Shown here: piece after piece, positions 3 to 9,026 of the stretch
How the letters are laid out: each line of letters starts with the position of its first letter
Position numbering within the stretch: position 1 is the stretch's first letter
Virus record (IMG/VR): IMGVR_UViG_3300046819_000096
Location: 1-24,064 of that record
Source of the DNA: a virus
Taxonomy: Duplodnaviria; Caudoviricetes
Length of the DNA stretch: 24,064 bases
Direction: 5' to 3' (one strand)
Made by a program: the position numbers and the translations under genes
The notes under the pieces: generated by a model
Databases searched by the model: none
What the model was told of the DNA's origin: nothing
What the model saw: only the letters and a program-made list of their open reading frames with translations

Positions 3-674
3 GTTAAACGTGCTAAACTCGGTGTTATTGTGCATACGCAATATCACGGAAAAGACCTACAGTCAATGTCGGCTGATCCTTTCCCGGATCATCACAACTT
101 TGGCCACAATGAAGATGTATGGCACAAGTCAGCAGAATATGATACTAGACATGTACACTATTCTGAAGATGCTCAAAAAGAATTCCACAAACACATGGAA
201 GCAGCATCCAAATTGAATAATGAGGGTGGCAAGAAGATGTATAATGCCATTCAACCACATGGTGGTGAAGCAGGTCATCTTTCAACATATATTAATCAAA
301 CCGTTCGTACAGGTGAAACTCCTTCTGTTAATGGTTTGCAAAAACACATCACAGACAAATATAAGAAGGCGGCAGAAAAACTTAAAACTCCTGCTGCTCA
401 AGGTCGTAGAGAAGGTGAAGGTCAACAACACGTTGCCCATATTGCTGATAATAAGGAACATTATGAAAACTTCTTGAAAATGCACCACCACATACAACAG
501 GCAAAGAATGTATTGGTTCACACATTGAACCAACATGAAGGTGGTCTGGAACATCATATAGATAATAAGAGAACAAATCCAGAAGGATTTGTCGTTAATC
601 ATGCAGGCGAGCCAACAAAACTCGTCAATCGTGCCGAATTTGCAAGAGCAAACCTATTAAAAGTCAGAAAATGA
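3..674 (+). CDS. 5'-truncated conserved T4-like phage protein with ligase/nucleotidyltransferase-like C-terminal motifs
   Basis: The frame is open from the window edge (VKRAKLGVIVHTQYHG...), so the listed GTG at 30 is probably not the start. It ends PEGFVVNHAGEPTKLVNRAEFARAN, a signature I recall from the ORF preceding cytidyltransferase genes in aquatic T4-like phages. His-rich. Confidence 0.7.
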   Translation, partial: VKRAKLGVIVHTQYHGKDLQSMSADPFPDHHNFGHNEDVWHKSAEYDTRHVHYSEDAQKEFHKHMEAASKLNNEGGKKMYNAIQPHGGEAGHLSTYINQTVRTGETPSVNGLQKHITDKYKKAAEKLKTPAAQGRREGEGQQHVAHIADNKEHYENFLKMHHHIQQAKNVLVHTLNQHEGGLEHHIDNKRTNPEGFVVNHAGEPTKLVNRAEFARANLLKVRK

Positions 675-2539
675 AAACCTTTTTAGAGTCATTAGACGAA
701 ATTAAGAAGTCCACCAAACCGGTGGTAATGGCCTTTGGTCGTATGAACCCACCAACATCAGGTCACTTAAAGTTGATCGATAAGGTTAAATCTACGGCCG
801 AAAAAGAAGGTGCAAAACACACTATCGTTCTTTCTCGTTCACAGGACTCTAAAAAGAATCCGTTATCAGGTGAACAGAAAGTTAAACACTTACAGAGATT
901 CTCTCCTGGCACACATTTTGATGTTGCTTCGAAAGATCATCCAACACTTATGCACCACGCAGCTAGATTACATGCTGCAGGTCACGACCATCTGATTGTT
1001 GTTGGTGGTTCGGATCGTGTTAAAGAATATCACGACCTCTTACACAAGTATAATGGTAAAGAAGGTAAACACGGATATTACAACTTTAAGAAGATTGAAG
1101 TCCGTTCTGCTGGTCATCGTGATCCTGATGCAGAAGGTTCTGAAGGCATGTCTGGCACTAAAATGCGTCACCATGCACAGAACAATGATTTCCATTCTTT
1201 CCGCCAAGGTGTTCCTCACCACGTTTCAGATCAACATGCTAGAGAGTTAATGAGAGATACTCGTAAAGGCATGGGTCTAAATGAAAATATCAATCGTGGT
1301 GTATTCAAGGCAATTTTTGTAACTGGTGGTCCAGGTTCAGGTAAAGATATTATCATTCGTGAGTGTATTGCGGAATCTAAATGTGTTGAGTTGAATACAA
1401 TTCAAGCATTCGAACAAATTTCAAAACTTGGTTACATCAAAGAAGTTAAAGAACGTAAACCATTAATCATCAATGGCCCAGCAGAAAACTCTCAAAGAAT
1501 CGGTGTCATTAAAGAATATCTTGGAAACTTGGGTTATTCGACAATGATGGTTTTTGTGGAAACTTCCAACGAAGCATCACAAGAAAGAAATTCTAAACTG
1601 TCTAGAATGATGGTAGAATCTATCAGAAATGAAAAATGGGAATTGTCACAGAAGAACAAAACAATGTTCTCCGAATCGTTTGACAATTTTATGGTTTTCG
1701 ATAATAACCGTACCATTGAAAGTCTGGAAGAAGATATTACCGATACATATATGTCAATCAACTCATTTTTAGACAACAGAAACTATTCGGAAAGTGCATT
1801 TGGTTGGTTGGATAGAAACAATAGACTAAATATCAATGAAAAACTCACAAATTTCTTCAAGGAAAGTAATAATGATTCAGGCAATTCTAAATTGGTTCAA
1901 AAAGTTAACGTCAAAGGGAAATACAACCCAGCCTTCCGTGCCGCAGGTCCAGGAGACATTACCCCAGACAACCGAGCAGGTGACGAAAACGCAGACGACC
2001 TCAAGTGGGACGCACCAAAAAGGAACAAAACGTACACCTTCAAAACCTACAGTGAAGGCAAAAACCCAACGCTCACAATCAGCCCAGAGCCAAAAGAGCC
2101 AAACTTCCAAAAAGACGCAGACAAAGAAAAAGTAAAAAAACGTGGTGACAAATCACTGAAGCAACAGACTTTGGGTAAACCTGCTGGTGTCGGTCAAGAA
2201 TATGATACTCGTGCAGGTGGCCAAGGTGCCGCAGCTGGTGCAGGTTTAGGTAATCAGACATACAGTGAAAGTATTGATGCAAGTAATGATGATGTTATCA
2301 ACTTTGCTGGTATGACAAGAGGTCCTACTCCTAATCCTTTGAGTAGTGATTATGACAACACGAAGAAGTCGTTTAAGAAGTTTAGAACCATCAAAAAAGA
2401 AGCAATTGATGATCCTGGTGCAAATGATATGGGTGTCGGTGGTACATTAGGTGGTGCAACTAATAAAGAACCTATGCAGTCATACAAAGATTCAGATCGT
2501 AATACAACCCTAACAATTAAGAAAAAAAAGAAGGTGTAA
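671..2539 (+). CDS. Cytidyltransferase/NMNAT-like (HxGH superfamily) domain fused to a P-loop kinase-like domain and a low-complexity tail
   Basis: N-domain FGRMNPPTSGH...VVGGSDRV...MSGTKMR. Second domain KAIFVTGGPGSGKD (Walker A at 1325-1345), LIING and MVFVETS...RN. ATGA overlap with the upstream ORF. Confidence 0.85.
   Translation: MKTFLESLDEIKKSTKPVVMAFGRMNPPTSGHLKLIDKVKSTAEKEGAKHTIVLSRSQDSKKNPLSGEQKVKHLQRFSPGTHFDVASKDHPTLMHHAARLHAAGHDHLIVVGGSDRVKEYHDLLHKYNGKEGKHGYYNFKKIEVRSAGHRDPDAEGSEGMSGTKMRHHAQNNDFHSFRQGVPHHVSDQHARELMRDTRKGMGLNENINRGVFKAIFVTGGPGSGKDIIIRECIAESKCVELNTIQAFEQISKLGYIKEVKERKPLIINGPAENSQRIGVIKEYLGNLGYSTMMVFVETSNEASQERNSKLSRMMVESIRNEKWELSQKNKTMFSESFDNFMVFDNNRTIESLEEDITDTYMSINSFLDNRNYSESAFGWLDRNNRLNINEKLTNFFKESNNDSGNSKLVQKVNVKGKYNPAFRAAGPGDITPDNRAGDENADDLKWDAPKRNKTYTFKTYSEGKNPTLTISPEPKEPNFQKDADKEKVKKRGDKSLKQQTLGKPAGVGQEYDTRAGGQGAAAGAGLGNQTYSESIDASNDDVINFAGMTRGPTPNPLSSDYDNTKKSFKKFRTIKKEAIDDPGANDMGVGGTLGGATNKEPMQSYKDSDRNTTLTIKKKKKV
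1872..2135 (+). CDS. Candidate overprinted 87-aa basic Thr/Lys/Gln-rich protein in the +1 frame
   Basis: AAGGA 8 nt before ATG 1872. Starts MIQAILNWFKKL. T-ending codons of the host frame largely vanish across this interval and return after TAA 2135. Confidence 0.55.
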   Translation: MIQAILNWFKKLTSKGNTTQPSVPQVQETLPQTTEQVTKTQTTSSGTHQKGTKRTPSKPTVKAKTQRSQSAQSQKSQTSKKTQTKKK

Positions 2540-5444: not shown

Positions 5445-6116
5445 ATGTCCTCATGGGGTAAATACGATAACGCAGCTAACACACCACTGTGGGCTGTTAA
5501 CGCTTCGATTGTTAAGAACAATCCAACAAAGGCTGCACCAACTCGTGCCAACGTTACACTTCTGTATGCAAACACCACATCTGGTGCTTACATCGCTGGT
5601 GAAACTGTCGGTCTTTTCGGTGTTGATGCACAAGAAGCTAATGCAAACAAGAAAGTTGCACATGCTGGTTGGGTACTGAAAACTACAGGTACTGGCGGCC
5701 GTGCTGGTCGTGTACAACAAGAAACTCTAGTTGCTCTAAGTTCCATGAATGGTACTGACGGTGATGGTCAAATTTACGCTAACGTTTCTATTTCACTGGC
5801 GGGTCCTTCGGCTGCGTCAGTTCTGGCTAGCGGTTCGTATGCTAACACAGCAACGTTCACAGTAACACCAACACTGTCCGGTAACACATCTGCAACTCTG
5901 ACATATGCATGGCAGACAAACAATGCAACTGGTACCAGAGGTTGGACAACACCAACAGATATCGCAAACATCCACTTCACTGGTGTAACTACCGCAACTC
6001 TGGGTGTCAAACCAGCAAATACTGCTAACACAACCGATGTGTTCCGTGTTGTTGTTACTGCGGCTGATCAAGGTGTGGTTGCAACATCTTCTAACGCAAC
6101 AATCACAATCGCTTAA
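5445..6116 (+). CDS. Virion structural/decoration protein with a C-terminal Ig-like domain
   Basis: MSSWG start and HAGWV motif. Ala/Thr-rich beta pattern TYAWQ...W...FTGVTTATLGV...FRVVVT. Strong SD AAGGAG and a late promoter upstream. Confidence 0.7.
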   Translation: MSSWGKYDNAANTPLWAVNASIVKNNPTKAAPTRANVTLLYANTTSGAYIAGETVGLFGVDAQEANANKKVAHAGWVLKTTGTGGRAGRVQQETLVALSSMNGTDGDGQIYANVSISLAGPSAASVLASGSYANTATFTVTPTLSGNTSATLTYAWQTNNATGTRGWTTPTDIANIHFTGVTTATLGVKPANTANTTDVFRVVVTAADQGVVATSSNATITIA

Positions 6117-7547: not shown

Positions 7548-7922
7548 ATGAACCATTGGTTAGATGCAATTTGGACACCAAATGAACTGATGTTCATAAT
7601 ACTATCTGTAATAATGATAGTATGTAGTGTTTATTTGTATCGATTAAATGCTGATAAGAAAAGTAAAGTATATTTTTTAGACCTAGTGTGTACCAATGGC
7701 GTATTGAACGAAAGAAAGTTCAGTAGATTTGGTGTCTGGATTGTAAGCACTTGGGGTTTCATTTATCTTATAGCTATGGATAGATTAACCGAATGGTACT
7801 TCATTGGATACATGGGTGCTTGGGTTGCAAATGCCTTGATTGGTAAAGCAATACAGAATAAAGATTTACAAGAATACTACAATGAACCTAATAATGAAAT
7901 AAGGGAAAAATGTCATGATTAA
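7548..7922 (+). CDS. Putative holin (about 3 transmembrane segments)
   Basis: Three hydrophobic stretches and a charged C-terminal tail. Overlaps the endolysin start. Confidence 0.6.
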   Translation: MNHWLDAIWTPNELMFIILSVIMIVCSVYLYRLNADKKSKVYFLDLVCTNGVLNERKFSRFGVWIVSTWGFIYLIAMDRLTEWYFIGYMGAWVANALIGKAIQNKDLQEYYNEPNNEIREKCHD

Positions 7923-8343
7923 CAGTCGTTCTTTGGATGAATTGCATCCTGTGGTAAAACCAAAGGTTGAAAAATTTTTAGAATTGTGTGATAATGAAGG
8001 CATTGATCTTCTTGTCACATCAACTTATCGTGACCATGAATCGCAGAACGCTTTGTATGCTCAAGGTCGCACTGCACCAGGTAAGAAAGTGACTAACGCA
8101 AAAGCAGGACAGTCCTGGCACAATTGGCGTTGTGCAGTTGATATTGTTCCATTGCGTAACGGTAAACCAGTATGGAACACTTCTGGTGAAGATGCTAAAC
8201 TGTGGGAAAAAGTTGGTCAGTTGGGAGAACAAGCCGGTCTAGAATGGGCAGGTCGTTGGAAAACATTTAAAGAAATGGCACACTTCCAATACACTGGTGG
8301 TTTAACACTCAAAGATTTACAATCTGGTAAACAGATAGGATAA
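7915..8343 (+). CDS. Endolysin, M15 family (L-Ala-D-Glu type) Zn peptidase
   Basis: TYR..Q..LYAQGRT.PG..VTNA..GQSWHN...AVD...W.G.W..F.E..HFQ motif set of CwlK/Ply500-like peptidases. Confidence 0.92.
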   Translation: MINSRSLDELHPVVKPKVEKFLELCDNEGIDLLVTSTYRDHESQNALYAQGRTAPGKKVTNAKAGQSWHNWRCAVDIVPLRNGKPVWNTSGEDAKLWEKVGQLGEQAGLEWAGRWKTFKEMAHFQYTGGLTLKDLQSGKQIG

Positions 8344-8346
8344 ATT

Positions 8347-8775
8347 ATGTGGGCACTAAACTTTTTACCTGACGTTGTATTTCATTTGGTATTAATTGTA
8401 GGCATACTTGCAATTATCGTTAGTTATGTGTTAGCATACTTACCCTTTGTACAGAAATACAAATTACCACTTCAAGTCGGTGGAATTATTCTGACCGTCA
8501 TTGGTATCTGGTATGAAGGTGGCATTGCCAAAGATAAAGAGTATCGTGTTAAAATTGCCGATATGCAAATTCAAGTAGCAAAGGCAGAGAAAGCATCTGC
8601 CGAACTAAATACCAAACTTGTTGAAGAATTGTTGAAGAACGAACAGGTCATTCGTGATAACAATAATGCAAACAAGAAGAAGTTAAAGGAATTAGAAGCA
8701 AATCTTAATGCTGGTTGCAAAGTGCAACCTCAAGTCATTGATGTGTTAAACAATGCGGCAGTAAACATAAAATGA
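8347..8775 (+). CDS. Putative inner-membrane spanin (Rz-like)
   Basis: N-terminal hydrophobic segments, a long coiled-coil and a Cys near the C-terminus. Lies between the endolysin and a lipoprotein gene. Confidence 0.75.
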   Translation: MWALNFLPDVVFHLVLIVGILAIIVSYVLAYLPFVQKYKLPLQVGGIILTVIGIWYEGGIAKDKEYRVKIADMQIQVAKAEKASAELNTKLVEELLKNEQVIRDNNNANKKKLKELEANLNAGCKVQPQVIDVLNNAAVNIK

Positions 8776-9026
8776 AAAAACTTTTAATATTGCCTCTACT
8801 ATTCATCTTGACCGGTTGCCCAACCGTTCCGGTGAAACAAGAATTCCCTAAGGTACCAGATTCTTTCTTGGTGCCTGCACCACAACTTAAGGTCACACCA
8901 GACGGTGCTTCGGCCAGTGAAGTTTTTGATGTTGTAATCGAAAACTACAGCACATATCATAGTGTGTCGAACACGTTAAGTAAGTGGCAAGAGTGGTACA
9001 AACAACAGAAACAACTTTCCGAGTGA
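8772..9026 (+). CDS. Putative outer-membrane spanin lipoprotein (Rz1-like)
   Basis: MKK, hydrophobic core, LTGC lipobox, Pro-rich linker and a C-terminal L..W...Q helix. Confidence 0.82.
   Translation: MKKLLILPLLFILTGCPTVPVKQEFPKVPDSFLVPAPQLKVTPDGASASEVFDVVIENYSTYHSVSNTLSKWQEWYKQQKQLSE

Follow-up and report, generated by a model that had tools for sequence, protein, structure and literature searches.

The window, as we call the whole 24,064-nucleotide stretch analysed here, is a fragment of a T4-like phage genome with matches to primase, ribonucleotide reductase, an endolysin and an Rz-like spanin. The gene of interest (Table 1), referred to below as the host gene, encodes a nucleotidyltransferase domain, a P-loop kinase-like domain and a low-complexity tail. 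Residues 21-112 match PF01467 (E 2.3e-5) and residues 1-371 the cytidyltransferase family phrog_3041 (E 2.8e-63); TIGR00125 is matched as well. Its N-terminal decamer fits the arrangement described for T4, with a 10-residue capsid-targeting tag and an L/I-X-E site for the gp21 protease (in the account of PMC9026906), from which we infer that the enzyme may be packaged into the phage head. Capsid-tag-like decamers ending in Glu open the ORFs that start at 671, 6116, 6987 and 7349 of the window. Further along, positions 7548-9026 hold a lysis-like cassette made up of a membrane protein, an M15 endolysin, a membrane-anchored ORF and, at 8772, the Rz-like lipoprotein match, which sits there in a nearly separated layout.

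Wholly within the host gene, in the +1 frame, lies a second open reading frame that runs from the ATG at 1872-1874 to the TAA at 2133-2135, exactly where the original prediction had placed a hidden, overprinted gene. Its start is preceded by a Shine-Dalgarno-like motif that the host gene spells with a Lys-Glu codon pair, while an alternative in-frame ATG at 1836 lacks such a motif.

Table 1. The host gene, the nested ORF with its candidate signals, and three look-alike ORFs that stand alone (window coordinates; those of the look-alikes refer to their own loci).
Feature	Coordinates	Strand	Basis or remark
Host gene, 622 aa: nucleotidyltransferase, P-loop kinase-like domain, low-complexity tail	671..2539	+	PF01467, phrog_3041, TIGR00125
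Capsid-targeting-like 10-residue N-terminus of host protein, ending L-D-E	671..700	+	sequence
P-loop motif GGPGSGK of host kinase-like domain	1325..1345	+	sequence
TAAATA, candidate internal late promoter	1827..1832	+	45 nt before nested ATG
Shine-Dalgarno-like AAGGA, spelled by host Lys-Glu codons	1859..1863	+	8-nt spacer to ATG 1872
Nested +1 ORF, 87 aa, net charge +15	1872..2135	+	sequence, conservation
Predicted amphipathic N-terminal helix of nested product	1872..1913	+	AlphaFold2 and hydrophobic pattern
Probably disordered T/K/S/P/Q-rich tail with basic end; zone of host T3 depletion	1914..2132	+	composition, model coil
Host-frame motif KEPNFQKD, over nested basic end	2093..2116	+	conservation
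Stand-alone look-alike L261	264-530	-	amphipathic start, Pro-rich middle, basic end
Stand-alone look-alike L268	501-866	+	amphipathic start, Pro-rich middle, basic end
Stand-alone look-alike L273	291-530	-	amphipathic start, Pro-rich middle, basic end

The hidden gene had been suspected from a loss of T-ending codons in the host frame, and this loss is strong. Measured solely at host codons able to end in T (T3), it leaves 11/65 T-ending codons in 1871-2137 against 212/374 in the rest of the gene (149/277 before and 63/97 after; Fisher 2.1e-9), and 5/56 (2.6e-12) in 1910-2137, bounds that were picked post hoc. A sliding scan of the 23 window genes likewise finds its lowest 40-codon window here, with 2/40 at 1961-2120 (binomial 1.7e-10), the runner-up having 9/40. 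That second-lowest window lies at 5844-5973 in the ORF 5445-6116 (binomial 1.3e-4 before correction). The original prediction was borne out for the tail of the nested ORF, where the depletion is bounded by the nested stop; it is refined by the first ten nested codons, which are T-rich, since the hydrophobic face of the helix is encoded there. Across 91 homologs host T3 is 0.87 and 0.81 over these ten codons and 0.03-0.11 over the last 30, returning past the nested stop to 0.46-0.60, with 0.49 immediately after each homolog's own stop. The open +1 frame in the window genome alone is modest evidence (P=0.0115 by synonymous resampling).

Conservation across relatives says considerably more. In a first set of 80 homologous loci plus the window, reduced to 56 distinct rows, the ATG stands in the same column in 48/56, and all 48 of these keep the +1 frame open, where 2.87 stops would be expected on average; the open frames span 83-128 codons, two of them running off the locus. 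A larger set of 168 rows (less 54 duplicates and 14 not covering the region) gave 100 distinct segments, 91 of which carry a +1 frame that starts at an ATG and runs for 72-128 codons without a stop, and nine do not, counts that are not independent events, the homologs being mutually related. The scripted count was 87/13; four loci (L052, L053, L065 and L079) were reclassified by hand, since the stop of the 96-codon ORF in each lies within the test span by a single codon. A further 80 loci comprise 16 with the nested ORF, five without it and 29 duplicates, the remainder being unclassified (21 without anchor, nine without hit). The host frame is intact throughout, with no stops in 91/91. Codon differences at positions that encode the same residue, computed over 40 homolog pairs, fall to 0.125 over the nested head and 0.206 over its tail, against 0.307 in the enzyme domains and 0.306 after the nested ORF, the synonymous constraint that a second code would impose. 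Four DNA sequencing runs show no variant inside the nested ORF, but the best of them may be the window's own source, which makes the result uninformative; none of the runs found to contain the sequence was RNA.

Where the ATG is gone the signal goes with it: the six such homologs that keep the host segment show 2-5 stops in the +1 frame and T3 of 0.51-0.64, and the T3 counts in ORF-less L086 and L087 are 17/43 and 25/49. A quick, midpoint-rooted tree built from the enzyme domains requires five changes to account for the nine ORF-less rows; well-supported branches compel four of these, and under that root the changes are read as repeated losses. The nested ORF is evidently dispensable, being absent from two genomes estimated at 98% (G001) and 100% (G009) completeness. 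A heuristic filter found no stand-alone copy in these or in a third ORF-less genome (G002, 71% complete), so that complementation by such a copy is unsupported in these three genomes. Seven long records hold the nested copy alone in four cases and neither form in three.

The start signal is conserved as well. An SD-like motif precedes 82/91 nested ATGs, compared with 66/2182 other +1 ATGs, and it is the host's codon choice that supplies it: a host Lys before Glu at this site is AAG in 52/56 cases against 57/712 elsewhere, and a Gly-Glu pair uses GGA in 22/23 against 13/136. Synonymous host codons are thus chosen so as to spell a ribosome-binding site. The region around the nested start is also unstructured (mean -1.4 kcal/mol, compared with -4.1 for the gene body and -2.0 for the host start). 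Because the +1 frame is kept open with a start signal of its own across most relatives, it is likely to be a translated gene, and we put the probability that the ORF is a translated second gene at about 95%.

A late promoter inside the host gene, upstream of the nested ORF, is probable. TAAATA occurs within 80 nt upstream of the nested ATG, at varying spacings, in 54/91 homologs as against 56/1579 other windows; the count expected is 20.7 from host residues and 33.5 from local codon use (maximum 46 in 500 runs). The Leu codon before AAT-A in this region reads xTA in 43/43 cases, and other Leu codons do so in 128/212. Between genes of the window, TAAATA is found 38-39 nt ahead of the starts at 5445 and 9092. 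The published late-promoter consensus of cyanophages is NATAAATA, as given in PMC2984593. Compared with the T4-type late promoter (N)ATAAATA, the TAAATA core is enriched here, yet the preceding bases are mostly GT (29/55) rather than the TA that mostly precedes the intergenic copies (30/47). The motif is missing in 37/91 nested homologs and kept by one ORF-less clade, and may therefore serve downstream genes too.

The nested product begins with a short amphipathic stretch, as had been suggested for the window: positions 2, 5, 6, 8 and 9 are hydrophobic in 98, 98, 77, 89 and 91% of the 91 homologs. The head keeps this hydrophobic/basic pattern while its residues exchange (I/L, L/F/W, F/L), and at five nested starts (L034, L041, L050, L051 and L075) four-residue extensions lengthen it in register. 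AlphaFold2 models a single 13-residue helix at residues 2-14 followed by coil (mean pLDDT 67, pTM 0.18), with a block at residues 1-10 reaching pLDDT 82. In being terminal, with one hydrophobic face and basic flanks, the predicted helix resembles membrane-targeting helices of the MreB/MinD type; its hydrophobic moment exceeds the resampling mean in 89/91 homologs, at p<=0.05 in 11/91 (p=0.18 for the window). The rest of the product is hydrophilic and basic, again as expected, F/I/L/M/V making up 0.121 of it compared with 0.396 on resampling (p<=0.01 in 91/91). Net charge ranges from +3 to +20 across homologs and from +4 to +10 over the last 20 residues, while the middle differs widely among homologs, both in how long it is and in its residues (mean column identity 32%). 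The Lys-rich host motif KEPNFQKD, which lies beneath the basic end and dictates much of it, is conserved in its own right (K475 96%, E476 90%, F479 98%, D482 98%, n=91) and retained in lineages without the nested ORF.

Searches with the nested product found no family in Pfam (0/40 members), PHROGs or NCBIfam, and protein searches found no named or stand-alone homolog. The ESM Atlas offers three viral clusters at 0.83-0.84, which are leads only, and no usable named hit; a profile of the nested family matches 16 of 1.84 billion cluster representatives, of which the 10 looked up are singletons. Two protein searches gave 4 and 16 hits, and those examined (all but P0005) resemble the nested family except for two proteins that are of low complexity or look chimeric. 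A search for a longer, fused form came up empty, which is weak evidence, and scanning loci with the nested protein alone yielded one locus. Searches of the open-access literature found no report of the nested ORF. Every sequence-level condition that would have told against the original prediction was checked, and none of them held. On sequence evidence, then, the nested gene is a strongly supported, unannotated member of what appears to be a new family.

The overlapped part of the host protein seems well suited to carrying a second code, which is likely tolerated there because the segment starts at a hydrophobic-x-Glu, protease-type site (82/91 homologs), looks disordered and can be deleted, as most of it has been in L018 and L202. 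The host gene varies in other ways. A kinase-plus-tail gene without the nucleotidyltransferase domain (L098:1923-3251) still contains the nested ORF, and two loci (L054:2835-4709 and L058) retain it with an unrelated host tail from about the end of the nested ORF onward. Breaks in the host frame occur at the nested stop in L307:501-692 and upstream of it in L242:1201-2823, the nested ORF being intact in both; each may be an assembly error or a natural split.

A scan for the head pattern returned 67 loci and, among their ORFs, 43 distinct ones, of which 12 belong to the host family, and a second type of host tail (type 2) came to light that does not align with the window's type-1 tail (best E 0.7). 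Of 38 type-2 loci, five are duplicates and 20 contain a nested, SD-led +1 ORF (51-97 aa) that is laid out in the same way; the 13 without one include nine that are incomplete, one with a 199-aa frame, two that are distant and one complete gene lacking the overlapped segment. Type-2 T3 runs from 0.54 before the ORF to 0.83 over its head, 0.24 over its tail and 0.55 after it. The products share short motifs with those of type 1, and 3/21 beat all 200 shuffles on the nested profile. In the type-2 tree one row (L403) was misaligned and is ignored.

Three ORFs that stand alone resemble the nested product in layout (Table 1) and have no PHROG or NCBIfam family. L273 has TAAATA at -33 and AAGGAG, a spacing shared by 24 nested cases, and L261 sits behind a homolog of window ORF 16085. 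Locus scans found one locus for L261 and at least one for L299.

Birth of the nested frame de novo on an older host tail is the origin toward which we lean slightly, a Lys-Glu or Gly-Glu pair having supplied the SD and an Asn-Val-type pair the ATG. In type 1 the host segment appears to stay under purifying selection after loss of the nested ORF, with differences of 0.069/0.048/0.317 at codon positions 1/2/3 (two pairs), and host identity (0.817) exceeds that of the nested frame (0.756; 24 pairs). Codon adaptation, in point values only, is 0.61 for the host and 0.54 for the nested frame, the 0.80 outside lying far above both, and on the nested profile the three look-alikes (L261, L268 and L273) do not clearly outscore their shuffled versions, of which 9, 193 and 18 out of 200 score as high. 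In type 2, however, the two frames are equally conserved (0.763 vs. 0.768, nine pairs), and the only complete ORF-less member (L383) is without the whole overlapped host segment. The distribution criterion, one of those for de novo overprinted genes treated in PMC8227390, reads both ways: the cultivated relatives HTVC008M, Melnitz and C48C1 have no such nested ORF, but they have other host tails too.

That type-1 and type-2 products have short motifs in common though their host tails do not align, and that stand-alone look-alikes exist at all, would favour capture of an older gene. We consider it possible, though on the unlikely side, that a stand-alone late gene for a membrane-to-DNA tether, with its own promoter and SD, was swallowed when the gene for a head-packaged enzyme read through it in another frame, was carried onward in two unrelated-looking tails and was lost repeatedly. 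If so, nature would offer one gene for comparison in three states: stand-alone, nested and lost.

As to what the nested gene does, late in infection ribosomes would likely start at the internal SD, on read-through mRNA and probably also on a transcript from TAAATA. The product, which has no capsid tag, signal peptide or Cys, likely for that reason stays in the cytoplasm. There the short amphipathic helix would lie on the inner face of the host membrane and the disordered basic end would hold DNA or another polyanion, making the protein an accessory tether. This reading is suggested by the helix of MreB and the layout of the phasin PhaF, and we offer it tentatively, at slightly less than even odds. 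Taken separately, membrane binding by the predicted helix is somewhat favoured, and nucleic-acid binding by the basic end, judged from its composition, we regard as evenly balanced. A nine-residue N-terminal amphipathic helix takes MreB of E. coli, and likewise GFP fusions, to the membrane, a single copy localising GFP only slightly (according to the account in PMC3163269); a monomeric nested product may therefore bind membrane weakly. PhaF has been modelled with an amphipathic N-terminal helix and a disordered DNA-binding C-terminus (in the description given in PMC3574117).

The helix could instead dock not on lipid but on a protein (a prohead, the host enzyme or a host complex), with the tail as a spacer. 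Disordered proteins often use short amphipathic helices to bind other proteins, the nested ORF remains within the gene for a probably head-packaged enzyme, and in 9/91 type-1 homologs and the type-2 member L403 the helix is followed by H-[PA]-L-[DE], which resembles a linear binding motif. Most members, however, lack that motif, and a head whose pattern is kept without its exact residues suits a lipid surface better than a pocket, so that we think docking rather improbable. Still more doubtful is a membrane-disturbing accessory to lysis, akin to the cationic amphipathic phage peptides: the cationic amphipathic start and the probably late expression would fit such a role, but there is one short helix followed by 73 residues of hydrophilic coil, no Cys or lipobox, and the window already has its endolysin and Rz-like spanin match. 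The great variation of the middle might also suggest that only the act of translation matters, in protecting the mRNA or attenuating host-gene ribosomes, the peptide being incidental. This is most improbable, as 91/91 homologs retain hydrophobic residues in the head and have the tail cleared of them, beyond what stop avoidance would produce, and about 400 nt separate the nested stop from the next gene, which precludes translational coupling. That there is no second gene at all, T having been lost through host-protein composition, RNA structure or an antisense gene (a 77-codon antisense ORF does lie at 1877-2110 of the window), has almost nothing left to commend it, since T3 is counted solely at T-capable codons, the signal stops at each homolog's own +1 stop and vanishes in homologs without the ATG, and of the other frames the best antisense one is open in 27/91 homologs, the +2 frame in 0/91. 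No Rfam family reached threshold, and a frameshift fusion was set aside given the conserved SD and ATG.

The nested gene adds an unannotated and widespread family to the freshwater T4-like phages, one that hardly ever appears in the output of gene callers. A nested frame of this kind persists in more than 120 diverged loci, and several lineages that lost it show relaxation of codon use, a rare natural experiment on overlapping genes; the two host-tail types, together with the stand-alone look-alikes, would allow birth de novo and capture to be tested against each other. The floppy, protease-delimited tails of head-packaged phage proteins suggest themselves as sites for more hidden genes.

The embedded architecture itself is already known, in lambda Rz1 and T4 gene 30.3'; by its sequence the product is neither and matches no family. 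Two-component spanins may be embedded, overlapped or separated, lambda Rz1 lying in the +1 frame of Rz (as described in PMC6139136), and like Rz1 the nested ORF is wholly embedded on the same strand in the +1 frame and missed by gene callers. Unlike Rz1, its product has no lipobox or Cys, the gene around it does not encode an i-spanin and the lysis cassette is elsewhere, nor is there any sign that nested and host products form a complex as Rz1 and Rz do. Identity as an Rz1-type o-spanin was rejected, the window product having no Cys and no family match. T4 gene 30.3' (NC_000866; 75 aa, translated internally within gene 30.3 in a different frame) is likewise a short basic internal ORF in a T4-type gene, but its product is hydrophobic-rich throughout and its host gene is unrelated; a homology search gave 7.7 bits, E 40, and homology was rejected. 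It is the host protein that resembles the T4 internal head proteins and Alt, as these are described, in that it opens with a 10-residue tag whose end reads L-x-E and has Glu sites in the tail; the nested product, unlike T4 tagged proteins, has no tag and would therefore not be expected to be packaged by that route. With E. coli MreB it shares a short basic/hydrophobic helix at the extreme N-terminus, by analogy alone, having no actin fold, no homology that passed a test and no known polymer to lend it avidity. And while PhaF of P. putida has a long helix and a leucine zipper, where the nested product is helical over about 13 residues and lacks a zipper, both combine an amphipathic N-terminus with a disordered C-terminus, the layout that in the phasin, according to PMC3574117, goes with a role as a DNA tether.
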